IMG/VR virus record: IMGVR_UViG_3300045988_179398
Span: 32,001 to 96,000 of that record
Direction: 5' to 3' (one strand)
From: a virus
Length of the DNA stretch: 64,000 nt
Positions 6,307-63,291 of this stretch are shown here, piece by piece. The position numbers were made by a program, and so were the translations under genes. The notes under the pieces are model-generated. The model ran no database searches. It saw nothing but the letters and a program-made list of their open reading frames with translations, and was not told the origin of the DNA. The number at the start of each line of letters is the position of its first letter. Within the stretch, counting starts at the first letter, position 1.

Positions 6307-7170
6307 ATGGCTAATTATATTCTTGGCGATGTTATGAAGGCGCAGGCTTTTATATCTGTTAAAGATAAGACTGGTGACAGTTATCATCTTGAACCTTATT
6401 TCACTGCCAATACGATGACTGAAAGTACCATAAATATATCGACGACCGCTGAGGAAGTTCGTGGTGGCTGGGGCAACCAGTTGCTTGGTAAAATATTCCA
6501 TGATTCCAATTTTGCGGTAAACCTTACCGAAGCAGAGTGGTCTCTTGATTATCTTGCAGCGCAAATTGGTAAAACCATTGACAAAAAAGCCAATGGTATT
6601 AATATTAAAACTGGCAGGGGAACGATAGCTAAAACGACTGGAATACTTACTTTCAAAGAGGGTCAAGGACCCGCAACTGGTGAAACTATTGCCACCATAT
6701 TTGCCAATGCCAGCTCTTTCTGTGATGTCTCGAATACTGCTATAATGTGGGCGAAAGATTGCAAAGATAATGTATACACGATTACTGTCGGAGCTAACGA
6801 AGGAAAACCTGTATATACTGTTGTTGGTGATGCACCCACAGCAGATATCGACGTGTGTGTAACGTACCCGTTGCAGCAAGCTGATTGTGAATCTCTTATT
6901 GTTGAAGCAGCTTATGAACCTGCTGAGTTCAGTCTTTTCTTGTATGGTAAGATATTCAAAGGAAACGGCTGTCAGAAGTCTAAGACCAATAAGGTTGGAT
7001 ATTTTACGATTGAAATCCCGAGATTCCAGCTTGATGGTACAGTTGATCTTGCGATGAACCCGAGCTCTGCTGCTACTACTGGTCTTAATGGTTCTGCTCT
7101 TGCATATGGTTGTACTTGTGGCGGCGAACCCGAATATGCAAAAATTACTGTTGTTCTTGACAAAGAATAA
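6307..7170 (+). CDS. Candidate abundant structural protein (major tail/tube-like or capsid-like); function unresolved
   Basis: Start chosen at MANYILGD because of the strong AAAAGGAG site; the track's 6256 start lies in an AT-rich leader. It sits between a hairpin upstream and a strong terminator downstream, which is typical of highly expressed structural genes. Confidence 0.4.
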   Translation: MANYILGDVMKAQAFISVKDKTGDSYHLEPYFTANTMTESTINISTTAEEVRGGWGNQLLGKIFHDSNFAVNLTEAEWSLDYLAAQIGKTIDKKANGINIKTGRGTIAKTTGILTFKEGQGPATGETIATIFANASSFCDVSNTAIMWAKDCKDNVYTITVGANEGKPVYTVVGDAPTADIDVCVTYPLQQADCESLIVEAAYEPAEFSLFLYGKIFKGNGCQKSKTNKVGYFTIEIPRFQLDGTVDLAMNPSSAATTGLNGSALAYGCTCGGEPEYAKITVVLDKE

Positions 7171-7355
7171 TGGCTTGTAAATTTGCTATTGATAAAAATG
7201 GGCCAGTTCAAATAGCTTGTAGTAAATTACATAATATGAATTGTCCTTATCAATATTGGTGTACGACTTTTCATCGTTTTAATAGTACCGCCACTAAAGA
7301 TAAATGTAAATATTACGAAGAAGCCGAGAACTCGGAACAACTGAATAAAAAATAA
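7170..7355 (+). CDS. Small Cys-rich protein (61 aa)
   Basis: TAATG stop/start overlap with the upstream gene. Six Cys residues. The terminator follows immediately. Confidence 0.4.
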   Translation: MACKFAIDKNGPVQIACSKLHNMNCPYQYWCTTFHRFNSTATKDKCKYYEEAENSEQLNKK

Positions 7356-7362
7356 ATAAATT

Positions 7363-7409
7363 AGAACCCGTTGAATGTGTTATGCGATACGTTCGCGGGT
7401 TCTTTTTTA
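7363..7409 (+). terminator. Rho-independent terminator
   Basis: AGAACCCG (7363-7370) pairs with CGGGTTCT (7396-7403) and is followed by TTTTTT. Confidence 0.7.
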
Positions 7410-7524
7410 TCTATCGTGCAATAAAACAAAACTTTTATTCAACGAAAATAGTAAAAAAGAGAGATAAAAGATAAGAAAAGAGGAATAATAACATAAAAAA
7501 TCTAAAATTATAAGGAGGTTTATT

Positions 7525-8427
7525 ATGTATTACTTAGACTATGCTAAAAAAGTAGACGATAGATATATACTTAACTTTTTCGCGGATTCCGCCGAGGATC
7601 TTAAAGACGTCCCCACGGATAAACCGTATATAACCCGTAACGGCACGAATTACGGTATACCGCTTGAAACGTCCGTTGTTACGATAATCGAGAAAGGCAC
7701 GAAGGTGAATTACGTGTTACAGAACGGCGCGTATATCGCTGGTGGAGATGTTGCACCCGTTGTTGGCACGCTCGAAGCTACCGAAAACAAAACTTATCTT
7801 GCGAAAGATGCCAACCTTGACGGTTATAGCCAAGTTGTGGTCAACGTTCAACCCACACTTCAGGAAAAATCGGCAACCCCGACGAAGGTGCAACAGGTTG
7901 TTACCCCCGAAGAAGGGTTTTATGGTTTGTCCAAAGTAACGGTCGCGAAAATACCTGATAACTACGTAATTCCGACTGGCGCGGTAGAAATTACGACTAA
8001 CGGCACTCACGACGTATCGGGAAAAGCGAGCGCGACGGTAAATGTTCAACCTAAATTACAGGAGAAGACCGCGACTGCTAACGGCGAAGTAACTCCAGAT
8101 GCTGCGTATGAAGGTTTGAGTAAGGTTACGATAAATGTTCAACCGAAACTCCAAGAAAAGAGCGTTACGGCGAATGGTGCGGTTACGCCCGACAGCGGTT
8201 TCCAAGGTTTGAGCAAAGTGACGGTCAACGTTCCCGCAACCCCGACCGAAGAAAAGACGGTTGAGTTAGCTCTCGCGAGTGGCAACCAAGTGATAACCCC
8301 GACCGCTGGGAAAAACATATCGAAAGTTACGATTACAAAGCCCGCGGAATTGCTTCCTGAAAACATCAAAAAAGGTGTGACGATCGCTGGCGTTGTAGGA
8401 ACTTATGAGGCAGCGCCGCAGGCTTAA
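7525..8427 (+). CDS. Virion surface/fibre-like protein with 32-aa tandem repeats; N-terminal domain paralogous to ORF 29536
   Basis: AAGGAGG upstream. The N-terminus MYYLDYAKK..ILNFFADSAEDL..NGTNYGIP parallels MLYLNYAKP..ILNFFADSEKDL..NGTDYGVP of ORF 29536. Repeats are of the form VNVQPxLQEKxxTxxGxVTPDxxxxGLSKVT. Confidence 0.6.
   Translation: MYYLDYAKKVDDRYILNFFADSAEDLKDVPTDKPYITRNGTNYGIPLETSVVTIIEKGTKVNYVLQNGAYIAGGDVAPVVGTLEATENKTYLAKDANLDGYSQVVVNVQPTLQEKSATPTKVQQVVTPEEGFYGLSKVTVAKIPDNYVIPTGAVEITTNGTHDVSGKASATVNVQPKLQEKTATANGEVTPDAAYEGLSKVTINVQPKLQEKSVTANGAVTPDSGFQGLSKVTVNVPATPTEEKTVELALASGNQVITPTAGKNISKVTITKPAELLPENIKKGVTIAGVVGTYEAAPQA
7840..8226 (+). repeat. Three degenerate ~96-nt (32-aa) coding repeats
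   Basis: GTnAAyGTTCAACCnAAAyTnCAGGAnAAr... recurs at about 7840, 8038 and 8134, inside ORF 7525-8427. Confidence 0.7.
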
Positions 8428-30453: not shown

Positions 30454-33400
30454 ATGGCGGTTTATAAACCAAGTAATTGCGTCCCGTTTTTATCTTGTTG
30501 GGATTTGACGCAGCCCCAATACATTAGCGGAGAATTGAACACTTCGAATGAAACCGTGACGGGGTATAAAGTTAGAGTTTTAGATAGTGAAAATAACACA
30601 ATTTTTGAAGGGAGCGAGTTTAACCCAATAAACTTTTCAGACAAAGTAATAAACAGCGGTCTCAACGGCTCAATTTTAACTCTTCCCTTAATTGTTTCGG
30701 TTGATAACTTGGAGACTGCGGATGCGCAGTATAATTTTATATATTATCAGAAAGGGCAAAATAAGTGGTATGGTTTTGCCAAAAACTCTTTTTACGAAAT
30801 CTCCAATTTTTCGAACAATTATCCCGACCAGCCATACAAATGGCAGATAACGCTCGCACAGGGTCAGCAAAACATAGATGGTGTTCTTGAACAGCAACCC
30901 TCCGACGAATACTTCGATATGGTAATCGACGAAGCAAAAATTCTCGGCTCGACTGGAAACCGTATTCAGAGTTGGTTGTCGGAAAATATATACAAAGATT
31001 ATTACATTCAATTATACGACGCAAGTAACAACGAACTCGGCGTGAGAACGCGCATCTCGAGTTACGATCATTCTTATGGTTTCATATACCCGCAAGAAAA
31101 TACGATTTCGCAAGAATTGGTCGATAGTGCGAGTTACTTTAAAATCTTCAAAGACACGAATGACCCGCAATACGTTTCAACGGCGAGGTTGATTAATTAC
31201 AGGTTAAAGACCGATATAGACAAGGTTGTGCTTGATGGTAAATTCCCGATAAATACTGAAAGTTTCGATGGTAGATTTAAACCTTCGGGAGATCCTTCTG
31301 TAGTTTCAAACCCTTATTTTACGCAGGTTTATGACGGGGATGTAACGAGTAATGTTACTTACGGAGCTTATACAAGGACAGAGAATACCACACCCCTCGC
31401 GGAAGGTACGACGTTTTTACTTATGTATCAAGGCGATACAAATACCGAACCAAACCCTACTTATAATAAATATAATGGTGTGTTTGCTTTCCAGTCGGCA
31501 GAGTTTAAAGATGGGAAAACCACGATTAAATGGTTACGCCCCGCTAACTTCAACAAATACTCCGATTTTCTTAATCGGTTGATTTGCGTTCAAAGCGAAA
31601 ACACAAATTACAGCACGAGCGCGACGGCAGAAAATCTCGGTACGATTAACCAAACCGAATTGATGTTCTACGACGAAACCGCGATAGGGTTATACCCCGT
31701 TTACGAAGACGGAACCAAGACTCTGAAAGTCGCGGAGGTAACGCTCGCCAATTCCGCGATAGGGAAGCCGCAAAATTTTGAGGGCGGCATCATTTCGTCG
31801 GTAAAGGTCAAAGCTCAACTAACGGGGGTAACCTTAACTGCGATTTGTCTTGGCGGTAATAAGTATGTTGTTAAAGCGCCAGATACATATACAGGAACGG
31901 CAACCGTAAATATCACCTATATGGAAGATAAAGGTGAAGTTTTCAAAAATACGGCGGGAAAGGCGTATATACGCCCGTTTATTGGAATTCATGCGGGCGA
32001 TAAACTTTTTTATGGGAAGGACTTTGCTTCAAGCGTTACAATCGATTATATCGATGACGTCGGTAATTCGAAGAACAAATTTAGCCCGACGTGGTATATC
32101 GAATACAACTCCGCCGAGAAGAAGTTGGACCTCGACGATAAATATTCGATTCGTTCGTTCTTCAAAACAAGCGACGAAAACCCGTTTTACGCAAAAGCTT
32201 CGCCCGTTTTAACCATCGATTGCGATCAATGGGAGAAAGATAGCGAAGATAAATATTACAAAAACGAGTACGGTTATTGCGTATGCAAAAGAAGATATGT
32301 AACATTTAAAGGCACAATTACCAATCGCAACTGGGTTAATTATCAATGGGTATTAACAGACCTTACGACCAACAACACCCAGATTTCCGAGAAAATTTAT
32401 CGCGGTAGTACGGAATGCACTTTTTACGGATTACAAAACGACCATTATTACGAAATATCTTGGATAGTTGAAGACGAGTTTGGCGGCATTTTTACCTGCG
32501 AGCAAGTCTTTTTCTTAGACGTATCCATCAACGACAGCCCGTTCCCGTTCGAAGCGAAATATGAGTGCGAAACGCAATCGGTGCTCATCAACTTCGCCAG
32601 AGATGGCGTAATTATCCCCGATCCTGCATTATATAGTTACGATACGTTTATGGTGAGGGTGGAAGAAGGTTCTAATATTTATCAGCCTTACATTGTGAAA
32701 GGGGAGAAAAATCTCAAGTATACTTATAGGGTTTTGGCTGAAAATAACTTTGACCCCGATAAGGCCGATTACACGATAGAATACGTTGACACCGATACGG
32801 ACAATGGTTATCTTCAATTAGGCGACATACAACCCGAAACTCCGTCCCCCGACCTTACTTATCTTATGAGTTATACGATGACGCAGATAGGAGACTCTGA
32901 ATCGGCAACGGGTGAAATCCCCGCGCCAACATCGGATGATTTTGCGCTCAATTCACAGCACGTTCTTAACGCGAATTTTGTCGGCGATGTGATAACTTAC
33001 GAAATTGACATCGAAGATTTTAACGATTTGCCTGCGCACATAGGGTTAGCGGTAGAATTATTGCCTCCGTCTAAAACTAATGCGGAAGGAGAGGTTGAGG
33101 CAGAAGAAAACCGCAACAAGATAAAGTTGAATTGTTATAAAAAAATCAACAACGGGGCGCCTTTGAATAAATATGAAATCTTTTTCAACATTTTCAAAAA
33201 AGATGGCGGCGGCAAATGGGTAAAAGATGAGAGCGGAAAATGGCAAGAAGAAAATCCCGTTGTCTCAGCATGGATACCCGACAAGGGTTATACGGCAAAA
33301 GACAACCGCGATTATATTCCCACAACACACCCATACGTTTGGGACGGTACGAAACAAGCTCCCGACAATAATTACTTAAACATCACGGGCGAGGGCGCGC

Positions 33401-54578: not shown

Positions 54579-55115
54579 ATGCAAGTAAAATGTCAAATTT
54601 GCGGCAAATCAATCGACCGTTCAACTGCATATAAAGTCGTGGTCAGCGGCACGAACAAATATTTTTGCTCGGAAGAAGAATTCAACGCTGATAAAGCCCG
54701 CAAAGACCACGCGAAAGAAGTTCTCGAAACGATTGCGGAGTGTTATCAATATTGCTCTGGTTATGGGGAACCGCCTTATAACGTGGTTAAAAAAGAACTT
54801 AAAGAAAACCTCAAAACGGTCGATATCGAGACGATTTATCAATTCGTAAAAGAAAACCGCGAAAAACTCAAAAAGACGATTGAAAAGAAAATCGAACGAG
54901 ATGGACCGTTTTCGCAGGTTTATTTCTTGTTTAGGTATGTGAGTGGGATAATAAAACGGGAAATACTTGAACACGGTTGGAAGGCGGCACAAGTCGCGCC
55001 GACCATTCAAAAAACTGGGATTGATTTGAATTTTTATAATGTCAAACCGAACACAAATCAACTTAAAAAGAGACGCTCGTTAGATGAATTGGAGGATCAA
55101 CTACTCAGCCCTTAA
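54579..55115 (+). CDS. Hypothetical protein with N-terminal zinc-ribbon (CQICGK...YFCSEE)
   Basis: 178-aa ORF with GGAGGA upstream. Confidence 0.5.
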   Translation: MQVKCQICGKSIDRSTAYKVVVSGTNKYFCSEEEFNADKARKDHAKEVLETIAECYQYCSGYGEPPYNVVKKELKENLKTVDIETIYQFVKENREKLKKTIEKKIERDGPFSQVYFLFRYVSGIIKREILEHGWKAAQVAPTIQKTGIDLNFYNVKPNTNQLKKRRSLDELEDQLLSP

Positions 55116-55327
55116 AAAGGTGTGGGCTTGCCCACTAGTTGATCAGACTAAGTGTTAAGCTACGTTATCAAAGAATATATAGGCACCGTAGGATGTATTC
55201 TCCAGTCTTACGCTCTGCGGTATGTGATTAAACAGTTCTGATGAGTAGGAACAGTGTTGCATACGAAAACCTTTGAATAACATTGTCGTGGAGTAACCAC
55301 TCTAACATATAGGAGGCTATAAAAGCA
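55116..55327 (+). ncRNA. IscB-associated omega-RNA (HEARO-type) candidate
   Basis: 212-nt non-coding, comparatively GC-rich segment immediately 5' of iscB on the same strand, which is the known location of IscB omega-RNAs. Its 5' boundary and guide are undefined. Confidence 0.55.
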
Positions 55328-56608
55328 ATGGTATATGTATTAAATAAACAAGATGAACCAATAATGCCTTGCAAGGAAGCGAAAGCAAGAAAATTGCTTA
55401 AACAGAGTAAGGCAAAAATAGCAAAACACGAACCGTTTACAATTCAGTTATTGTTCGATTGTGAAAATCAGATACAAGAAGTAAATTTGGGAATTGATGC
55501 GGGAAGTAAACATATTGGTGTTTCGGCAACGACAGAAAAGCAGGTCTTATACGAGGCAGATGTTGAGCTGAGAAATGATATTGTTAATAAGTTATCTTCT
55601 CGTCGCGAGGCTCGTAGAACTCGTAGAAACAGATTAAGATACCGCCCCGTAAGGTTTAATAATCGAATTAAATCAAAATATAAAGAGTGGTTAGCTCCGA
55701 GTATTAAACAAAAGATAAACACGCATATTCAAGTTATAAAACACTTATACGAAATTTTGCCGATAACAAATCTCATTGTAGAAACCGCTCAATTTGATAT
55801 TCAAAAGATGAATAATTCCGAGATATCAGGTGAAGGATATCAACAAGGTGAACAATTGGGATTTTGGAATGTAAGAGAGTATGTGCTTTACCGCGACAAT
55901 CACGAATGTCAATATTGCCACGGTAAATCAAAAGACAATATATTAAATGTTCATCATATTGAAAGTCGGAAAACAGGCGGAAATGCACCAAATAATTTAA
56001 TTACTTTGTGTGAAACTTGTCATAAAGCTTATCATAAAGGCGAGATTAAATTAAATCTAAAGCGCGGTAAAAGCTATCGGGACGCGGCATTTATGGGTAT
56101 TATGCGTAAAACATTACTTAATCGATTACGCGTGTTATATCCAAATGTTTGCGAAACGTATGGCTATATAACCAAGAACGTTCGTATCGAAAATAACTTG
56201 CCAAAAGAACATTATATAGACGCTCGGTGTATAAGTGGTAATCCAAAAGCAAATCCATTAGATTATTACATTTATCAGAAATGTGTCAGAAGACAGAACA
56301 GACAAATTCATAAAAATAAAATTTTAAGCGGCAGCCGAAAGAGAAATAATCAAGCACCAAGATATGTTTTCGGGTTTAAACTCTTTGATCTTGTAAAATA
56401 TAATAAACAAAATTACTATGTTTTTAGCAGAAGAACAAGTGGCGCCTTTGATATAAGAAATCTTAATGGAGAAAAAATAAACAATGGTTCAATAAGTTAT
56501 AAGAAACTTAAAAAGATTAAACACAATTCAACAAAACTAATAGAAAGGAGGCGGCAATTCCTCTGCATCTCTAAAAGGGATGTGGTTTCTTTGCCGAAAA
56601 TTTTATGA
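55328..56608 (+). CDS. iscB: IscB (OMEGA RNA-guided nuclease; PLMP + split RuvC + HNH)
   Basis: PLMP domain VYVLNKQDEPIMPCKEAKARKLLKQSKAKI..PFTIQL. RuvC-I LGIDAGSKHIG. HNH CQYCHG...VHHIESRKTGG..NLITLCETCHKAYH. RuvC-III HYIDARC. Confidence 0.85.
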   Translation: MVYVLNKQDEPIMPCKEAKARKLLKQSKAKIAKHEPFTIQLLFDCENQIQEVNLGIDAGSKHIGVSATTEKQVLYEADVELRNDIVNKLSSRREARRTRRNRLRYRPVRFNNRIKSKYKEWLAPSIKQKINTHIQVIKHLYEILPITNLIVETAQFDIQKMNNSEISGEGYQQGEQLGFWNVREYVLYRDNHECQYCHGKSKDNILNVHHIESRKTGGNAPNNLITLCETCHKAYHKGEIKLNLKRGKSYRDAAFMGIMRKTLLNRLRVLYPNVCETYGYITKNVRIENNLPKEHYIDARCISGNPKANPLDYYIYQKCVRRQNRQIHKNKILSGSRKRNNQAPRYVFGFKLFDLVKYNKQNYYVFSRRTSGAFDIRNLNGEKINNGSISYKKLKKIKHNSTKLIERRRQFLCISKRDVVSLPKIL

Positions 56609-58185
56609 AGCAGATGGCTAACAAAGAGGCTTTTATTGCGGGAATATGTGACAAAATAGACGAAAGACTTCTTGAAGATCGCGTTACAATCGAAGGAAAT
56701 GCCGTCTCAATCTTTTTACAGGATTTGACGAATTACAACGATATCAACTATAAACCCGAAGATTTTCTAACGAAAGATGGTCGATTCCTTTTCTGCGTAG
56801 GGAAGTCGCTTCGTGATTTGGGGTATAATTACCTCGATGAAGTAACGATTATGTCAAAGTGTTCGCAGGAAATCAAAGACAGAATTTCCGCGCTTGGTGG
56901 GTATAAGACGATTCAACATCTTCTCGATGTCGTGAATGCCGAAAACGCTGACGCAATTCTCGATGATCTGACGAAGAGTAATATTCTGGTTAAACTTTAC
57001 AAAAGCGGGTTCAATCTTTTCGACGAAGTAACGCTCGATAACGGGAAACGTATTTCCCCATTTAAGTTGTTTAAGAATTTCACTTCGACGGAAGTTCTTG
57101 ATTGGTACGACGCGAAAATCAGCGGATTAAGCAAGGTCAATAATAACCAAATCATCTACGACGAATACGTCGATTTCGGCGAAAAATTCATCTCGGATTT
57201 GCAAAACAACGTCGATAGCGGTGTTTCGTTTGCGGACGCTGGCGAAGACATCAACGGCGAAAAAATCAGCGTCGCGCCCTTTTTGAGCAGTAATATACTC
57301 GGTCTCGCGCCTGGAACATTAAGCCTTTTCGGCGGGTTCAGCGGCGTTGGTAAGACGACTTATATGGTCGGCGTGATTATGGCGCTTATTTCGCAGGGTA
57401 AAAAGGTTCTTGTGCTCGAAAACGAGATTATGAAGAACAAACTTTATCTTATGATTTTCAGTTGGTTTATCTCCCGTTATATGGGTTATCAGAAACTGCC
57501 GAAGAAAAAACTCGAATCGGGTGTTTATACCGACGAAGAAAAGAAGGTAATCGCCGAGGCCGAAAAACAATGGAAAGAGAAGTTCGCAGACAAATTGCGT
57601 GTTGTCGGTTTATCGTCGGCAAACTCGAAGTTGAGTTCGCAAATCATCAAAAACGCAGTACTTCGTTCGGGGTTTGATGTGTTCATTGTGGATACATTCA
57701 AGCTCGACGATAGTGCAGACATAAACGGCGCGTTGTGGCAGGTTATGAAGAACAACATCAGCGAACTCGAAGGACTAACGAAGAAATACGGCGTTATCGG
57801 AATCGCGACCGTTCAGCTGACGAATAACGACTTAAAACGGTTATGGCTTGATTCAAGCTGTCTTGGAACATCGAAAGGCATTAAGGAAGTGTGTTCTAAC
57901 CTGATTTTGCTCAGAAAGCTTGGAGGAGATTTGGAGTTAATTAACGGCTCGGATATTTACTGTCGACCGTTCCGTTCAAAGAAAAACGAGCAGGGCGACT
58001 GGGTAGAAGAACCGTATGATGCCGACCCAAGCAAGGTTTGGAGAGTGCTTTTCATAGATAAATCTCGTTCTGGTCCCGACAGCGGCGATACGGGCGTAGC
58101 GTATTTGTTGAGATACGACGGCGATCACTGCTCATTTTATGAAACGGCGAAGTGTCGCCCTGTTAGAAAGATTATAAATGGTTGA
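56605..58185 (+). CDS. Replicative DNA helicase (DnaB-like)
   Basis: Walker A GGFSGVGKTTYM, Walker B FDVFIVDTFKLDD. ATGA overlap with the iscB stop and no Shine-Dalgarno site of its own. Confidence 0.7.
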   Translation: MKQMANKEAFIAGICDKIDERLLEDRVTIEGNAVSIFLQDLTNYNDINYKPEDFLTKDGRFLFCVGKSLRDLGYNYLDEVTIMSKCSQEIKDRISALGGYKTIQHLLDVVNAENADAILDDLTKSNILVKLYKSGFNLFDEVTLDNGKRISPFKLFKNFTSTEVLDWYDAKISGLSKVNNNQIIYDEYVDFGEKFISDLQNNVDSGVSFADAGEDINGEKISVAPFLSSNILGLAPGTLSLFGGFSGVGKTTYMVGVIMALISQGKKVLVLENEIMKNKLYLMIFSWFISRYMGYQKLPKKKLESGVYTDEEKKVIAEAEKQWKEKFADKLRVVGLSSANSKLSSQIIKNAVLRSGFDVFIVDTFKLDDSADINGALWQVMKNNISELEGLTKKYGVIGIATVQLTNNDLKRLWLDSSCLGTSKGIKEVCSNLILLRKLGGDLELINGSDIYCRPFRSKKNEQGDWVEEPYDADPSKVWRVLFIDKSRSGPDSGDTGVAYLLRYDGDHCSFYETAKCRPVRKIING

Positions 58186-58195
58186 GGAAGCGGAT

Positions 58196-59026
58196 ATGGA
58201 AACAAAAATTATGTACGGGCAGGAAGTTGCCCAAAATATGCTGAAAGATTTGACGTGGAACCCTCGGCACACCTTATATATTCTCTCGAATCAAGCCGAC
58301 CCCGCAAGCGCGGTGTATGTTCGAAATAAGAAAAAGAAGTGTGAAGAGGTCGGGGTTAGATGCGTCGTTTATGATATTTCAAGTTCTTGTATAGAGCAGA
58401 TTAACGATATTTTGTATAACGAAATCAGTCTCAGTTCGGAAAAATATTACGTCATCATTCAAAAGCCATTGCCCGTTCAACTTCGTGAATATGAAAAAGA
58501 GATTGACGCTTTTTTCAAAAAATTCCCCGATGCAGACATTGACGCATTTGGAGGCGATTTGTCAACTGAATTTAAGACGCCAGCAACCCCGCTCGGAGTT
58601 ATGAAAATGTTGGATTATTACGTCGGCACGAAAACACTCGATGGATTAAATACGGTTGTGCTCGGTCGTTCTGAAATCGTTGGAAAACCGATGGCGGGAT
58701 TGTTACTCAACGCAAACTGCACCGTGACTGTTTGCCATTCGCACACAAAAAATCTCAAAGATTACACGCGTAACGCCGACTTGATTGTTAGCGCGATTGG
58801 GAAACCGAAATTCATTACGAGCGATTATATAGGCGATAATCGTCCTATAATCGTGGATGTCGGGATTAACCGTGATGAAAACGGAAAATTGTGCGGCGAC
58901 GTCGACTTTGAAGACGTAAAAGAAAAATGCTCATTTATCAGCCCAGTACCAAAAGGCGTTGGCGTTTTGACTGTCGCGAGTTTGGTATATAAAATGGGTA
59001 AAAAAATTTTTAAAAAAATAACGTAA
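58196..59026 (+). CDS. folD: Bifunctional methylene-THF dehydrogenase/methenyl-THF cyclohydrolase
   Basis: GRSEIVGKPMAGLLLNANCTVTVCHSHTKNL...ADLIVSAIGKP...VDVGINR...GDVDF...SPVPKGVGVLTVASL. Start chosen after GAGGAAG. Confidence 0.9.
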   Translation: METKIMYGQEVAQNMLKDLTWNPRHTLYILSNQADPASAVYVRNKKKKCEEVGVRCVVYDISSSCIEQINDILYNEISLSSEKYYVIIQKPLPVQLREYEKEIDAFFKKFPDADIDAFGGDLSTEFKTPATPLGVMKMLDYYVGTKTLDGLNTVVLGRSEIVGKPMAGLLLNANCTVTVCHSHTKNLKDYTRNADLIVSAIGKPKFITSDYIGDNRPIIVDVGINRDENGKLCGDVDFEDVKEKCSFISPVPKGVGVLTVASLVYKMGKKIFKKIT

Positions 59027-59061
59027 AAACGCTTGACAAATAAATCTCGTTATGGTATAAT
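59027..59061 (+). promoter_or_regulatory. Consensus phage promoter copy 6
   Basis: AAACGC, TTGACA at 59033-38, 17-nt spacer, TGGTATAAT with -10 at 59056-61. Confidence 0.8.
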
Positions 59062-59086
59062 GTTCTCGTAAGTTGGAGGTAAGGTT

Positions 59087-59221
59087 GTGGTAAGTTTGTT
59101 TATAACAGATTTCTTTTTTACCGTCGGTGTCATTCTCGGAATAAAGATTCATATGAAAAGAACGGGCGACAGCTTCCAAGAAGTTTGTTTGAAAATAAAG
59201 GATGCAATTTTTCGCAAATAA
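59087..59221 (+). CDS. Possible 44-aa membrane peptide (not in ORF track)
   Basis: GTG start 8 nt after TGGAGG. Translation MVSLFITDFFFTVGVILGIKIHMKRTGDSFQEVCLKIKDAIFRK, with a hydrophobic N-terminus. Confidence 0.3.
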   Translation: MVSLFITDFFFTVGVILGIKIHMKRTGDSFQEVCLKIKDAIFRK

Positions 59222-59232
59222 GGAGGCATTAG

Positions 59233-59430
59233 ATGTTGACAGGTGATGTTAGAGAAAGAGTTGTTAAAGAGCAAAATGAACTGCGTGACAAAATAACGAA
59301 ACTCGCGTTGTTTATCTATTCCGAAAGAATTAACACGGTTTCCAAAAAGCACGCTGGTTTGCTCAAAGCACAACTTCATGCAATGGAAGAATACGACGAG
59401 ATTCTGACTGAAAGGTTGAAATCAGACTAA
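59233..59430 (+). CDS. Hypothetical small helical protein
   Basis: 65-aa ORF with AAGGAGG upstream. Confidence 0.55.
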   Translation: MLTGDVRERVVKEQNELRDKITKLALFIYSERINTVSKKHAGLLKAQLHAMEEYDEILTERLKSD

Positions 59431-59806
59431 AAACTCGGTGCCTAACGCCTTGAACGGTGGTGGTCCAAAGGTGGTTAAATTGGGAAGCGCCCAGCCGAGT
59501 AAACGTTCACTGCGGCGACTGCGGTATGTAAAAGTCGTAGGTATAGCGCCACCGTTAAACGCGCCAGTTATTGGGGTCAACTAAAGGCGGCGGATAGTTA
59601 ATCCGTGTAGCAACCCTTAGAGTTGGTGGTGTAAAAATCTCTTAAAACCACTTATGGGCGAAGTGAGTAGAATCAAATTGCCTCGCCGCTGACCAATATG
59701 CGGGATAAAAGTGGTTGGGTCGACAAGTATTAAAAACAGAGATAACTCGAACTGTTTTCCTATGGACGGTTTTCCCCAAAGTACACGGGGATAGGGTTAT
59801 TTATAT
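59431..59806 (+). ncRNA. Large structured non-coding RNA candidate (segment A, may extend to 60160)
   Basis: No ORF with an RBS. GC is higher than in neighbouring intergenic DNA. Long-range pairings ACTCGG (59433-38)/CCGAGT (59495-500) and AACGGTGG (59453-60)/CCACCGTT (59549-56). Local hairpin CGGAT-AGTTA-ATCCG (59591-605). Confidence 0.5.
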
Positions 59807-59877
59807 GCCCAAGTAGCTTTACGGCAAAGTAATAAGAAGCTTCTTATTAGCTATTGGTTCGACTCCAATCTTGGGAT
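59807..59877 (+). ncRNA. tRNA-like element 1 (aberrant anticodon arm, no encoded CCA)
   Basis: Acceptor stem 6/7 bp. D-arm GCTT-TACGGCA-AAGT. T-arm ATTGG-TTCGACT-CCAAT. The anticodon arm is the palindrome AATAAG-AAGCTT-CTTATT, so the loop is at most 6 nt. Confidence 0.45.
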
Positions 59878-60160
59878 CGGGTGAAGTTGAGGCAGTCATT
59901 CACTCCCTGAAAAAAAGAAGGCATGGTGTATTTGAGAAGGTCCTAATTATGACCTAAGTTATCCGAAGTCTTTTCTCAATAAAATGAGATTAAAGAATGT
60001 AGAGATAAGCTCATTAGGATGTTAACTAATGAGAGTGTAAACTAACTAGTCAGTTATCTATACTTTATTGACTTTAAAATAATGCCAAGGGGCTAGAGGC
60101 CGCACTAGTATAAAATTGTCGGATTTTCGCGAATGACGCCTCGGAAAGACGAGGATGCAT

Positions 60161-60232
60161 GCCCTCTGAAGACTGGGTGGACGGTTGCTTGATCACCAAT
60201 CGTGCGTAGTTCGAATCTGCGGGAGGGTGCCA
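60161..60232 (+). ncRNA. tRNA-like element 2 (encoded CCA, 9-nt anticodon-type loop, no clear D stem)
   Basis: Acceptor GCCCTCT/GGAGGGT (two G-U pairs). T-arm CGTAG-TTCGAAT-CTGCG. 3' tail GCCA. Central arm ACGGTTG-CTTGATCAC-CAATCGT. Confidence 0.45.
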
Positions 60233-60256
60233 ATAAAAAAAACGAAGGTGATTAAA

Positions 60257-60394
60257 ATGGGACTTTTAAGTTTTTTAGACAAAATATTCAGTCAGGGCTA
60301 TGAAAGCATAGAAGATTATTGTAATCAAAATGGGTTAAATTATACGGATTTGCCCGAACCCGATGATTACTATGATGATGACGATGATGATTAA
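60257..60394 (+). CDS. Small acidic protein (45 aa, poly-Asp C-terminus)
   Basis: ATG 7 nt after AAGGTG. Translation MGLLSFLDKIFSQGYESIEDYCNQNGLNYTDLPEPDDYYDDDDDD. Confidence 0.4.
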   Translation: MGLLSFLDKIFSQGYESIEDYCNQNGLNYTDLPEPDDYYDDDDDD

Positions 60395-60460
60395 AAAAAA
60401 CATAGGTTTGTAATTTTTCCTCCGAAGGCAGCAGGTTAATGTTAATTCGCGTCGCGTTCT

Positions 60461-60489
60461 TTGCGTTGTCCACAAAGTGTGCTATACTT
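60461..60489 (+). promoter_or_regulatory. Candidate extended -10 promoter for the second RNA unit
   Basis: TTGCGT (60461-66), 17-nt spacer, TGCTATACT with -10 at 60484-89. Confidence 0.4.
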
Positions 60490-60495
60490 AATTTA

Positions 60496-60807
60496 CCACA
60501 ATCAAGTATGGCGAAAGCCATCAAGTATTTGTTGGGTATGCTTTAAGGTTTCACCAACCAACCCAACTTTACGGAAGTTTACTCAATGTTGGCAAAGAGG
60601 ACGGTTTGCTAAACCGTTAGGTCTTCGTAAGAAGGCGAGCAGGATCGACACCTGCAACTTCCGCCAGTAACGTTGGGGAAGAAGAAGAGAAAGCGGGGTT
60701 TGAGAGCGCGCGCACGAGTCGTAACTCATCGAAGGCGATTACCTCGGTTAGACGTAAGATTGCTACGTTTTTTGCGAGTTTTTCGGTGAATAAAACTCGT
60801 ATTTTAT
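60496..60807 (+). ncRNA. Structured non-coding RNA candidate (segment B, leader of tRNA-Trp)
   Basis: No credible ORF. GNRA-capped hairpins ATGGC-GAAA-GCCAT (60508-21) and CTTC-GTAA-GAAG (60623-34). Hairpin ACGGTTT-GCT-AAACCGT (60601-17). Confidence 0.45.
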
Positions 60808-60882
60808 GCACCTTTAGTATAACGGTATTATCCTGGCCTCCAAAGCCATGGGAACTGAGTTCGAATCTTAGAGGGTGTGCCA
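60808..60882 (+). tRNA. tRNA-Trp (anticodon CCA), CCA end encoded
   Basis: 75-nt cloverleaf. Acceptor GCACCTT/AGGGTGT. D-loop AACGGTA. Anticodon loop CT-CCA-AA. T-arm CTGAG-TTCGAAT-CTTAG. One C-U mismatch at 27:43. Confidence 0.8.
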
Positions 60883-61010
60883 GAATCCTGCGGTAGGTAT
60901 ACATACGCGCAGTCCGAAGCTATTGGCGGATAGAGAATTGATGTATAGCTATCATCACACGCAGAGCTGGTCGTGCTCGACAGAAGAACCCAGCCCATTT
61001 ACTTGACAAA

Positions 61011-61046
61011 ATTGTCCACGCACGAATGTGCGTGGACAATTTTGAT
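61011..61046 (+). terminator. Rho-independent terminator
   Basis: ATTGTCCACGCAC-GAA-TGTGCGTGGACAAT followed by TTTT. Confidence 0.75.
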
Positions 61047-61073
61047 TGATATATATTTTAAAATATTAACAAT

Positions 61074-61108
61074 AAACGCTTGACAAAACTTGAAAAGTAT
61101 GTTATAAT
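61074..61108 (+). promoter_or_regulatory. Consensus phage promoter copy 7 (drives tnpB-2; probably a hybrid of phage -35 and element-borne -10)
   Basis: AAACGC, TTGACA at 61080-85, 17-nt spacer, TGTTATAAT with -10 at 61103-08. Confidence 0.8.
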
Positions 61109-61133
61109 GGCAATAGAAAAAGGAGTGACAAGT

Positions 61134-62234
61134 ATGGAAAAGTCTTATAAATTTAGGATATATCCAAATGAAAAACAGCGTGTGTTAATGGCGAAGACTT
61201 TTGGTTGCGCAAGGTTTGTGTATAATTATTACCTTGATAAAAAGATTAAAGTATATAAAGAAACGAAGCAATCGATAAGTTTTTATGCTTGCTGTTTAGA
61301 TTTAACGCTTCTTAAAAAAGAAGCCGAATGGCTTAAAGAGGTTGATAAGTTTTCATTGCAAAACTCATTACGAAATTTAGATGCCGCTTATCAGAAATTC
61401 TTTAAAGAACATTCTGGATATCCTAAATTTAAGTCTAAACACGATAATAGAAAATCATATAGGACAACGTTTACAAATAATAATATCGAATTTAAAGAAG
61501 GATATATAAAATTACCGAAACTTGGATTAGTGAAATTCCGAGACGAGCAAATTCCGCAAGGAAGAATATTAAATGCGACGATTTCTCAAGTTCCGAGTGG
61601 AAAATATTATTGTTCGATTTGTTGTACTGATGTTGTTATGGACGACTTACCCAAGACGGGTTGTGTTCTCGGAATAGATTTAGGGCTAAAAGACTTTTTA
61701 ATTACAAGTAATGGCGATAAAGTTTCTAATCCGAAGTATCTGTCTAAATCTTTAAACAAGCTTGCTAAATTACAAAGAGCGCTTTCGCGAAAACCAAACG
61801 GAAGCAATCGTAAAAATAAAGCAAGAATAAAGGTTACAAGACAGTATGAAAAGATTACAAACCAACGCCAAGACTTTTTGAAGAAATTATCGACTAAACT
61901 CATACAAGAAAACGATATTATCTGTTTAGAAGATTTGCAAGTCGAGAATATGGTTAAGAACCATAAACTTGCAAGATTGATAAACGATGTATCGTGGTTT
62001 GAATTTAGACGACAACTTGAATATAAAGCCAAATGGTACGATAAACGAGTTGTAGCCGTAGATAAGTTCTTCCCAAGTAGTCAAATTTGTAGCTGTTGTG
62101 GTTATGTCAATAAAGAAACAAAGGACTTAAAGGTTCGCAAGTGGGTGTGCTCTGAATGTGGAACAAAGCACGATAGAGATATAAATGCAGCGAAGAATAT
62201 CTTAAACGAGGGTTTAAGATTATTGAATTGTTAA
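61134..62234 (+). CDS. tnpB: TnpB, copy 2
   Basis: Start at [15 protein letters not shown] after AAAGGAG; the track's 61080 start runs through the promoter. RuvC triad intact ([30 protein letters not shown]). Zinc finger CSCCGY...CSECG. Confidence 0.9.
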
Positions 62235-62344
62235 TAATTTAAAATAGATAAGAACCGCAGGAACTGCGGGGATAGCTCGGTAAATATCCACACAGTAGTG
62301 TGGAGTTCCCGAGAAATGCGCGACTTTAGTCGTATGATGTTCAG
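62235..62344 (+). ncRNA. Omega-RNA 3' scaffold of TnpB-2 (approximate)
   Basis: Hairpins CCGCAG-GAA-CTGCGG, CCACAC-AGTA-GTGTGG and CGACT-TT-AGTCG, enclosed by CTCGG/CCGAG. Ends in GATGTTCAG. Confidence 0.55.
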
Positions 62345-62368: not shown

Positions 62369-62388
62369 AATTGTGCTTGGAGGTAATT

Positions 62389-63291
62389 ATGGGAAATTTC
62401 ATTTTAGTAATGGGTCTGTCTGGAAGCGGAAAATCACATTGGATAAGTGATATCGTCGAGGAAGGGAACACAATCATCTTATCGAGCGACGCGCTTCGGA
62501 AAGAATTTTACGGCGACGAAAGAATTCAGGACAACCCCGCCTTTATATTCGAGCAAATGCGTATAAGAACGTTACAGGCGTTAAAAGAAGGTAAAAGCGT
62601 TACTTACGACGCGACTAACCTCAGCTCGAAGCGTCGTAAGGCGTTGTTGAAGCAATTGCCCAAAGATGTTTATAAAATCTGTCATTGTATTATTACGCCC
62701 CTCGAAAAATGTATCGAGAACGATTCAAAAAGAGAAAGGCACGTTTCGGAGCGCGTAATTATGCGGCAGTTGGAGCAATTCGAGGTGCCGTGGTTTGATG
62801 AGGGTTGGGATACAATTTTCGTGATAAAACCATTTGGCGACGCCCCGTTAAAAGTCAATCTCAATGTAATGCACGATTGTTCGAAATATCACAAAAACGA
62901 CACGATCAATAATCATATCGCAAGGGTTATACAAGCGGTCGCATTGAAGCCGAATGTTGAAAAAGGCGATCGCGATGTTCTTCTCGAGGTAGCGTGGTTT
63001 CATGATATCGGGAAACCGTATACAAAAACCTTTTATGACAAAAAAGGAAAGCTCGGAGAAAACGCTCATTATTATAACCACGAAAACGTGGGTGCTTATT
63101 TATATATGGTTTCACATGTAGAAGGGGCGGCTTACGGAGATAGAGAAAATATGTATAACGACCTTTTTCTCGCGTGGCTTATCAATAACCATATGATTAT
63201 CTGGAATAATCAAAAAAGATATAATTCATTTAACGAACATATCAAACATTTACTTAAAATATTCAGTGAATGCGACAAGGAGGGTGCTTAA
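62389..63291 (+). CDS. P-loop polynucleotide-kinase-like domain fused to HD phosphohydrolase domain (RNA end-healing candidate)
   Basis: Start at MGNFILVMGLSGSGKSH (Walker A) after GGAGG. The C-terminal half carries H...WFHDIGKP...HENVGAY (HD domain). Confidence 0.6.
   Translation: MGNFILVMGLSGSGKSHWISDIVEEGNTIILSSDALRKEFYGDERIQDNPAFIFEQMRIRTLQALKEGKSVTYDATNLSSKRRKALLKQLPKDVYKICHCIITPLEKCIENDSKRERHVSERVIMRQLEQFEVPWFDEGWDTIFVIKPFGDAPLKVNLNVMHDCSKYHKNDTINNHIARVIQAVALKPNVEKGDRDVLLEVAWFHDIGKPYTKTFYDKKGKLGENAHYYNHENVGAYLYMVSHVEGAAYGDRENMYNDLFLAWLINNHMIIWNNQKRYNSFNEHIKHLLKIFSECDKEGA

Follow-up and report, generated by a model that had tools for sequence, protein, structure and literature searches.

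The locus and its source

The sequence analysed here, referred to as the window, is a stretch of 64,000 nucleotides (nt) from an IMG/VR virus record (IMGVR_UViG_3300045988_179398, positions 32,001 to 96,000 of that record). We consider a region without open reading frames (ORFs) at positions 59431-60160, which lies in an operon whose order is 44-aa ORF, Sequestin gene, ORF-free region, 45-aa ORF, tRNA-Ser and tRNA-Trp. An initial annotation, made from the sequence alone, had described this region as about 730 nt of comparatively GC-rich, highly structured DNA and a candidate for a large non-coding RNA, possibly related to the phage-borne classes ROOL and GOLLD. We find that positions 59431-59806 encode a conserved, modular, structured non-coding RNA at the head of the tRNA cluster (in the following, the scaffold RNA). 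Within it lies a cassette of 47 nt that, judged by its sequence, is an orphan unit of CptI, the antitoxin RNA of the type III system CptIN. All features of the operon given below are located on the plus strand.

Every long ORF of the window is located on the plus strand, including those for very large tail-type proteins. The replicative helicase shares only 25-30% identity with its counterparts from cultured phages of Clostridioides, Lactococcus and Bacillus, and contigs of 124-146 kb from human-gut metagenomes hold sequence near-identical to the window. Because of these comparisons we assign the window to an uncultured phage of about 140 kb, whose host is, as far as sequence can tell, a gut member of the Bacillota. 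With the helicase and Sequestin as anchors, 65 homologous loci (numbered L001 onwards) were collected from IMG/VR, ENA and Logan assemblies, comprising 40 distinct downstream regions.

The absence of credible coding potential is borne out. The longest ORFs within 59431-60160 encode 48-52 aa, and a hidden frame sought in the homologous regions of relatives was not found: stop-free stretches reach at most 69 codons, occur in differing frames, and none is conserved. The elevated GC content pertains to positions 59300-59750 (0.47, versus 0.33-0.37 just upstream) but not to 59750-60200 (0.38-0.39). Folding energies are ordinary (z = -2.3 on the plus strand, -3.1 on the minus strand); since these scores are unremarkable and the sense strand is no better, thermodynamics alone is insufficient to call the region highly structured, a description that covariation nevertheless supports for 59431-59806. 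Nor is the region a single unit of about 730 nt. Positions 59431-59806 form the conserved RNA, but the AT-rich non-coding spacer that occupies 59877-60124 is lineage-specific: no homologue is present among L001-L006, and only L089 contains a counterpart, which is partly alignable with large indels.

A modular structured RNA at the head of the tRNA cluster

The scaffold RNA comprises about 375 nt in the window and is conserved in the 40 distinct variants of the clade as well as in three other phage contigs. A covariation analysis across related phages, as the initial annotation had proposed, revealed compensatory changes, with clear covariation in three parts: the 5' unit (U1), a conserved hairpin, and a 3' pseudoknot with three-way junction. 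An RNAalifold model of whole short forms was discarded, as its long-range pairing was unreliable because the 5' types align poorly; module-by-module covariation tests were used in its place.

The U1 unit (59433-59500) has the general form P1 - U - P2(GCY../..RGU) - UAAAU - N - [A/C]A[A/G] - P1' and occurs in one to four copies per RNA. In the window it includes GGTGCC (59437-42) and GGTTAAAT (59473-80). Helix P1 consists of ACTCGG (59433-38) and CCGAGT (59495-500), a complementarity noticed already in the initial annotation; it is a real helix that covaries in relatives (CAGG/CCTG, ATTAGG/CCTAAT, TTTAATAGG/CCTATTAAA and others). P2 (GCC.. / ..GGT) surrounds a variable hairpin and has only 3 bp in the window's own unit. 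Among 16 distinct units, 92% of cells are paired, a value not reached in any of 500 shuffles. Cells with changes on both sides number 49 (shuffled mean 19.8) and the covariation score is 0.67 (shuffled 0.19), with 0 of 500 shuffles reaching either; the number of pairs with changes on both sides (7 of 11) is a count that shuffles often match.

The part of the RNA up to position 59616 (module M1, 59431-59616) exists in three sequence types. The two hairpins at 59501-59572 differ in sequence among these types, and their structure was assigned by inspection. A second long-range complementarity proposed earlier, AACGGTGG (59453-60) with CCACCGTT (59549-56), is present in the window but not conserved, with three mismatches in the closest sequence type when the alignment is read by eye, and this helix was dropped. 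M1 ends with a conserved hairpin (59573-59616) of the form GGGGTCAACTAAAGGCGGCGG-(CGGAT AGTTA ATCCG)-TGTAGCAACCC, whose inner stem at 59591-605 had likewise been noticed beforehand and covaries (CGGCT/AGCCG, CGGTT/AACCG). Exactly after position 59616, relatives carry extra modules of 120-850 nt.

Downstream follows a candidate H-type pseudoknot with A-rich loops (59619-59652), in which AGAG (59619-22) pairs with CTCT (59639-42) and GGTGG (59625-29) with CCACT (59648-52). Because inspection reveals just two variants of its second stem (GGTGG/CCACT and GATGG/CCATC), covariation argues weakly for this element. The scaffold hairpin GGGCGAAGTGAGTAGAATCAAATTGCCTCGCC (59656-59687) is located immediately 5' of the cassette; it is kept in the window clade and in L112, and a diverged version occurs in L115.

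The 3' domain (59732-59806) forms a pseudoknot and three-way junction with stems S1 (59734-38 / 59753-57) and S2 (59742-48 / 59794-800) and two hairpins, hp1 (59758-73) and hp2 (59774-90, loop AAAGTACAC); its end, ..TTATAT, abuts a tRNA-like element. The domain was recovered in 24 distinct instances. When 14 distinct sequences, drawn from four phage lineages, were compared, pairing held in 95.5% of cells and compensatory changes were present at 9 of 16 pairs, values that 0 of 500 shuffles reach.

The modules vary in number. L072 contains M1 alone with tRNA-Thr directly after it, and in L057-L061 a tRNA-Leu is found where the RNA would be. Long versions in relatives extend over 0.9-1.4 kb, and in L112, a phage contig of 233 kb, the RNA between the tRNAs (6440-7843) reaches about 1.4 kb. 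Within long forms we also observe a module of about 125 nt, the E-core (AACTCTATAATTGCACAGCGG...GCAGTACRTAAGGGACTGA...GCTGTA; L113 395-518, L115 6440-6565 on the reverse strand, L006 12365-12490), which is absent from the window, has no Rfam match, and in two other phages occurs on its own directly 5' of tRNA-Asn. Seen by eye, U1 had some likeness to twister, tracrRNA and Cas12a repeats, and the E-core to RNase P RNA; these comparisons were abandoned, as the strings in common are not kept across U1 types or find no backing in Rfam.

The scaffold RNA belongs to no Rfam family and has no match in cultured phages or plasmids. The covariance models of Rfam 15 were run at gathering and at permissive thresholds. 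At gathering thresholds the window yields only HEARO (55096-55300) and tRNA-Trp, and the window together with 16 related loci yields only tRNA and HEARO, with no RNase P, tmRNA, intron, riboswitch or ribozyme. The region and the long forms were also compared by BLAST with 50,697 phage records and 72,556 plasmids; the matches were limited to tRNA-Trp and promoter-like sequence, plus a weak one of 36 nt to a Pediococcus plasmid (E = 0.8). An exact scan of 185,579 genomes for a 21-mer of the conserved hairpin gave no match. Scans of IMG/VR with the conserved hairpin, the M3 pseudoknot and the scaffold hairpin recovered the same few contigs only.

A CptI-like cassette

The cassette (59685-59731, 47 nt) consists of a pseudoknot core (59686-59723), an additional C (59724), and AAGTATT (59725-31), the counterpart of the 5' tail that a next repeat would have. 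Stem S1 is formed by 59686-89 and 59700-03, S2 by 59693-97 and 59714-18, and loop L2 is A-rich. The stretch conserved best in the 3' half (GCTGACCAAYATGCGGG..TGGGTC) served as query against contigs of JGI metagenomes, and the matches comprised the phage clade as well as bacterial loci with the same 45-nt unit in one to three tandem copies (period 45-46). In the bacterial loci a promoter precedes the tandem units; a terminator hairpin comes next, and then an ORF that encodes about 155-163 aa. The ORF gave no match in a Pfam search; it is CptN, matching the toxin of the Eubacterium rectale CptIN complex (PDB 4RMO_A) with E = 3e-52. A genome scan located the unit in 20 contigs from metagenome-assembled genomes and isolates (Ruminococcus, Lachnospiraceae, Oscillospiraceae, Agathobacter, Gemella, Christensenellaceae and others), and in the metagenome and genome scans together a CptN gene lies beside the repeats in 21 loci.

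In the Gemella loci L082 and L106, the second of the repeats agrees with the core of the window's cassette at 38 of 38 nt. The published CptI sequence (primer in PMC4627078) aligns with this family unit for unit, and the differences in the stems with respect to E. rectale CptI are compensatory (CCAC/GUGG to CCGC/GCGG, CCGAU/GUCGG to CCAAU/GUUGG), as they are in the bacterial loci. Over 18 bacterial and phage units the stems are paired in 99.4% of cells and show compensatory changes; in the window copy, too, S1 and S2 both form. Few stretches of the RNA are as well conserved as the core across the phage variants, and the variants of L2 in phages (GAUAAAAGU, GAUAUAAGU, GGUACAAGU and so on) parallel those of the bacterial repeats. 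A homologue of CptN was found neither in the window nor in any phage locus; the unit thus appears as an antitoxin without its toxin. We note that the CptN proteins encoded beside near-identical cptI repeats (L078-L111) share a mutual identity of only 48-66%, so one CptI-type RNA may fit many CptN variants.

The cassette is carried by 24 of the 40 variants and occupies a defined slot. In L069, a member of the window clade, the slot is empty, and the 3' pseudoknot follows the scaffold hairpin without a break; L112 and L115, two unrelated contigs, have a simple hairpin (CTAACATAGYAATGTGTTAG) in the slot. Because the slot is empty, or filled by a hairpin or by CptI, in different phages, comparison of the sequences points to a scaffold RNA that existed first and took up the antitoxin unit, which comes and goes in the manner of an accessory counter-defence element.

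Processing signals, operon and neighbouring genes

Directly after the 3' domain lies a tRNA-like element (59807-59876) with acceptor, D-like and T arms, in which a long hairpin with a 4-nt loop takes the place of the anticodon arm. At this position relatives harbor either a genuine tRNA-Ser (L003, L004, L053) or tRNA-like elements without a normal anticodon arm, and the 3' domain always ends with ..GGGTTAT(N)TATAT right before the tRNA or tRNA-like element. Such a fixed end would be expected if it were RNase P that sets where the RNA stops, and the element is presumed to be an RNase P/Z processing signal with this role. A second, aberrant tRNA-like gene (60161-60232) has a 7-bp acceptor stem, a T arm and an encoded GCCA end, together with an 'anticodon' stem of 6-7 bp and a loop of 9 nt. 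The two tRNA-like modules of the initial annotation therefore possess acceptor and T arms, but a cloverleaf whose anticodon loop has 7 nt is seen in neither, and both go uncalled by ARAGORN and by the Rfam tRNA model (RF00005). Between the spacer and the second element is a conserved pre-tRNA leader (60125-60160) with the previously noted hairpin CCTCG-GAAAGA-CGAGG (60139-54). The leader is kept ahead of different tRNAs in other phages: it is 100% identical in L005 before tRNA-His, and also precedes tRNA-His in L089 and tRNA-Thr in L112.

The operon starts with a perfect sigma-A-type promoter of the early kind (59033-59061; TTGACA-17-TATAAT with TG, 12 of 12 matches). The promoter block is kept in relatives, and the next such promoter of the window is located at 61080. 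The first gene is a conserved hydrophobic ORF of 44 aa (59087-59221), followed by the Sequestin gene (59233-59430; PF21825, crAss001_48; 65 aa), whose stop codon lies 2 nt before the RNA; both are under the same promoter as the RNA. Sequestin is a recently described phage sponge for immune signalling nucleotides, i.e., an anti-defence protein. Downstream of the RNA are tRNA-Ser (60573-60666) and tRNA-Trp (60808-60882), and the likely terminator of the operon is a perfect 17-bp hairpin (61007-61044) after these. The two tRNA-like elements, tRNA-Ser and tRNA-Trp are located within 1.4 kb on the same strand, and relatives encode two to seven tRNAs just downstream.

The tRNA operon also contains a 45-aa ORF (60257-60394) with a good Shine-Dalgarno sequence and a strongly acidic tail (..PEPDDYYDDDDDD). 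It has no Pfam match; the gene calls of identical metagenome contigs include it. The spacers at 60667-60807 (between tRNA-Ser and tRNA-Trp) and 60883-61000 (GGTAGGTATACATACGCG...GGCGGATAGAGAATT...) are kept in unrelated phage contigs (L113 1135-1240; L115 6640-6760 on the reverse strand), and these non-tRNA spacers may be further structured modules of the array.

Downstream of the operon, an insertion (61080-62344) contains a TnpB gene (OrfB_IS605, 61136-62234) and is absent from relatives; a different TnpB is located inside the first U1 unit of the RNA in L001 (12060-13250). Further downstream is the gene of a Pnkp-like protein (AAA_33 kinase and HD phosphatase, 62371-63291); relatives have an RNA ligase gene after it. 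Kinase and ligase are a tRNA-repair pair, and the neighbourhood of the RNA combines anti-defence with tRNA repair. A tRNA-repair pair beside a tRNA array is consistent with pressure from host nucleases that attack tRNA or other RNA. Phages with distant homologues of the kinase/HD protein have no adjacent tRNA array and none of the modules. Upstream, a gene for FolD (methylene-THF dehydrogenase/cyclohydrolase, 58178-59026) is shared with some relatives, while others lack it or carry it elsewhere (L001 20779-21249). The HEARO match is a full omega RNA (119.6 bits) with an IscB-like ORF (RRXRR and HNH, 426 aa) directly downstream of it (joint span 55096-56608), which means that this phage genome has an IscB element. 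In relatives, copies of HEARO occur at other places of the tRNA region (L002 13935-14135).

Proposed function and alternative explanations

We propose that the phage RNA is a mimic of CptI that keeps the CptN toxin of the host switched off, and assign this reading a probability of roughly 0.6. The RNA would be transcribed early from the sigma-A promoter at 59033, probably together with Sequestin and the phage tRNAs, and a cut by RNase P at the tRNA-like element (59807) would free its 3' end. Infection would stop host transcription, upon which the labile CptI of the host would decay and the endoribonuclease CptN would be freed to abort the infection. An abundant phage RNA could then supply the mimic, binding CptN and holding it inactive, by analogy to ToxIN and phage PhiTE, which escapes ToxIN via a pseudo-ToxI RNA (PMC3475682). 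The extra C may turn the cassette into a poorly cleavable pseudo-substrate inside a stable scaffold, and the other modules might contribute stability, folding or further decoys. The genomic context speaks for a decoy, as the RNA sits between the anti-defence gene Sequestin and the tRNA array, which is followed by the Pnkp-like kinase/HD protein.

Several observations weigh against this proposal. In 14 of 14 distinct phage copies examined, the 5' tail AAGUWWW gives way to nucleotides that become part of the upstream scaffold hairpin by base pairing, and all 14 contain one extra C at the junction cleaved by CptN. With the cleavage boundaries of PMC4627078, the bacterial junction reads GGGU[C/U]G[A/U]^AAGU (the caret marks the cut) versus GGGUCGA-C-AAGUAUU in phages. 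Of the two processing junctions (..G[A/U]^AAGU..) that would flank a unit, the 3' one is thus present with an inserted C (GGGTCGA-C-AAGTATT in the window) and the 5' one is absent (TTGCCTCG). As a consequence, processing by CptN and assembly into a ring are uncertain. The phage RNA contains a single repeat, in place of the tandem array (mean 2.4 repeats, range 1.9-3.4; PMC3401426) with terminator and cptN gene that makes up a bacterial locus; a single CptI repeat is, on the other hand, fully antitoxic in E. coli (PMC4627078). The window copy has an A at the position of the kink nucleotide U30 of E. rectale CptI, deletion of which abolishes activity (PMC4627078), though bacterial repeats with the same A exist. 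The unit is evidently dispensable, because 16 of the 40 clade variants lack it. Finally, a decoy presupposes a host with cptIN and a CptIN that acts against phages; in E. coli, no protection against phages by CptIN was seen (PMC3401426).

A broader idea is that the scaffold represents an undescribed class of large modular phage RNA in tRNA arrays, which serves as an exchangeable display platform for RNA decoys, with U1, the A-rich pseudoknot at 59619-59652 and the E-core acting as mimics or sponges for other RNA-binding defence proteins. We put this forward as a tentative suggestion, one that may well turn out otherwise. If true, it would constitute the first natural evidence of CptIN acting against phages.

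In an alternative account, the scaffold RNA is functional, be it as a stable RNA, an aid to processing or folding of the tRNA operon, or an RNA of the nanocage type, and the CptI unit is a passenger of recombination without anti-toxin activity. The single copy, the changed tails and the extra C at the cleavage junction would all fit, as would a slot that can be empty and a region that is highly mosaic, with insertions of a homing endonuclease, TnpB and IscB. A neutral relic, however, would be expected to decay, and the core is instead one of the best-conserved stretches, retains both stems, and has L2 variants that mirror bacterial repeats. We therefore consider a mere passenger unlikely, though worth keeping in mind.

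The initial annotation was right about the setting, namely a sizeable structured non-coding RNA beside tRNA and tRNA-like elements in a phage of Bacillota, as known for ROOL and GOLLD, and covariation agrees with it. A divergent member of either class might moreover be expected to be large, as relatives of the window's RNA are, and to have a more variable 5' part and a better conserved 3' pseudoknot, as described for GOLLD. The Rfam search that it had proposed nevertheless returned no match to ROOL (RF03087) or GOLLD (RF01998), neither in 58900-61200 (E<=10), nor in the long forms L006 and L112 (E<=10 or E<=5), nor in eight other loci (E<=1), so membership is not supported although the setting fits. 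The independent occurrence and varying order of the modules are also unlike one integrated fold, and we regard a divergent ROOL or GOLLD as very unlikely.

The U1 units, which recur along the RNA, might alternatively be self-cleaving ribozymes, for example circularly permuted and pistol-like (G^UGC, GUUAAAU, AAG), that cut the transcript into small RNAs along with the tRNA-like elements. In Firmicutes, pistol ribozymes, which have helices P1-P3, a pseudoknot of the P1 loop and 10 conserved nucleotides, are frequent close to phage genes, and the motifs GGUGCY and GUUAAAU resemble the pistol core (env25 pistol sequence). The fold backed by covariation (P1, U, P2, UAAAU) places GUU inside helix P2, unlike a pistol junction, and with this the permuted-pistol idea was dropped. 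Neither a consistent pistol-type P2 pairing nor a loop pseudoknot was found by inspection, and Rfam gave no match to RF02679, a model that a permuted form would escape. There is accordingly little to recommend ribozyme activity of this kind.

Another possibility is that the CptI unit draws in host CptN to process the phage transcript, with no inhibition involved. The cassette does retain one inter-repeat junction, the site of CptN cleavage, but that junction is altered by the extra C in every phage copy examined, the tRNA-like elements already offer processing sites, and dependence on a sporadic host toxin is implausible; we deem this highly improbable. Least credible is that the region is filler of a decayed tRNA array (pseudo-tRNAs, recombination scars) or a hidden small protein gene, as the two aberrant tRNA-like elements, the poorly conserved 59877-60124 and the ordinary z-scores on both strands might suggest, since 59431-59806 shows strong compensatory covariation in three separate elements and no conserved frame.

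Comparison with known systems

Non-tRNA stable RNAs inside a phage tRNA cluster have a precedent in phage T4, whose cluster encodes the 'species 1 and 2' RNAs (rnaC, rnaD) of about 120-140 nt that are freed by the tRNA-processing machinery. These, in contrast to the RNA described here, carry no known antitoxin mimic. The 3' junction of the scaffold RNA resembles the Rfam motif DUF3800-IX (RF02968), which matches 59741-59805 with 24.3 bits (gathering threshold 36.8; E = 0.038 in a 2.3-kb search) and aligns end to end (outer stem, CGAAC, two hairpins, UAG). The match is below threshold, however, relatives are unmatched, and no DUF3800 gene is nearby. Over 58900-61200 it was the one further Rfam match of note at E<=10.

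ROOL and GOLLD are likewise phage-borne structured RNAs at tRNA islands that are probably co-transcribed with tRNAs. The covariance model of ROOL has six multistem junctions along with three pseudoknots, and GOLLD has a universally conserved 3' region. A 5' part that varies is common to GOLLD and the scaffold RNA, and the linker of GOLLD sometimes contains tRNA insertions. It differs from both in that it is built from separate modules in varying number, with only about 375 nt in the window's form. As a structured family absent from Rfam it joins the small set of large phage tRNA-island RNAs, and its cassette slot suggests one possible job for such RNAs, namely the carriage of decoys.

With respect to type III antitoxins, we know of only one experimental example of RNA mimicry, the pseudo-ToxI of PhiTE, which arose or was improved under laboratory selection. 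There, too, a phage RNA without toxin resembles the antitoxin repeat of a host type III system, and is proposed to neutralise the cognate endoribonuclease (PMC3475682). Pseudo-ToxI consists of 1.5 diverged repeats that need expansion or recombination, whereas the cassette of the window is a single unit whose core is, by sequence, about 100% identical to a bacterial repeat. The targets differ as well, being ToxIN in the one case and putatively CptIN in the other, and here the cassette is part of a larger RNA within a tRNA operon and has a modified cleavage junction. As in E. rectale CptI (PDB 4RMO; PMC4627078), the unit is of the 45-nt type, with H-type stems S1 and S2 and an A-rich L2; unlike it, the phage unit is not tandem, lacks a downstream terminator and cptN, has a swapped 5' tail and contains the extra C.

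A survey of 2012 located cptIN on chromosomes only (PMC3401426), and one of 2025 describes type III systems as unreported in phages, save for one toxIN prophage and its own new tenpN matches. In the literature on pseudo-antitoxins and antitoxin mimics we found pseudo-ToxI and protein examples, and no report of a CptI mimic in a phage. What the present locus adds is a natural, widespread clade of gut phages that carries a near-perfect CptI unit without the toxin. The invariant extra C provides a concrete hypothesis of how an antitoxin might be turned into an uncleavable inhibitor of its nuclease. CptIN is common in Lachnospiraceae and Ruminococcaceae, and the locus makes its possible role in defence against phages, a question dating from 2012, directly testable.

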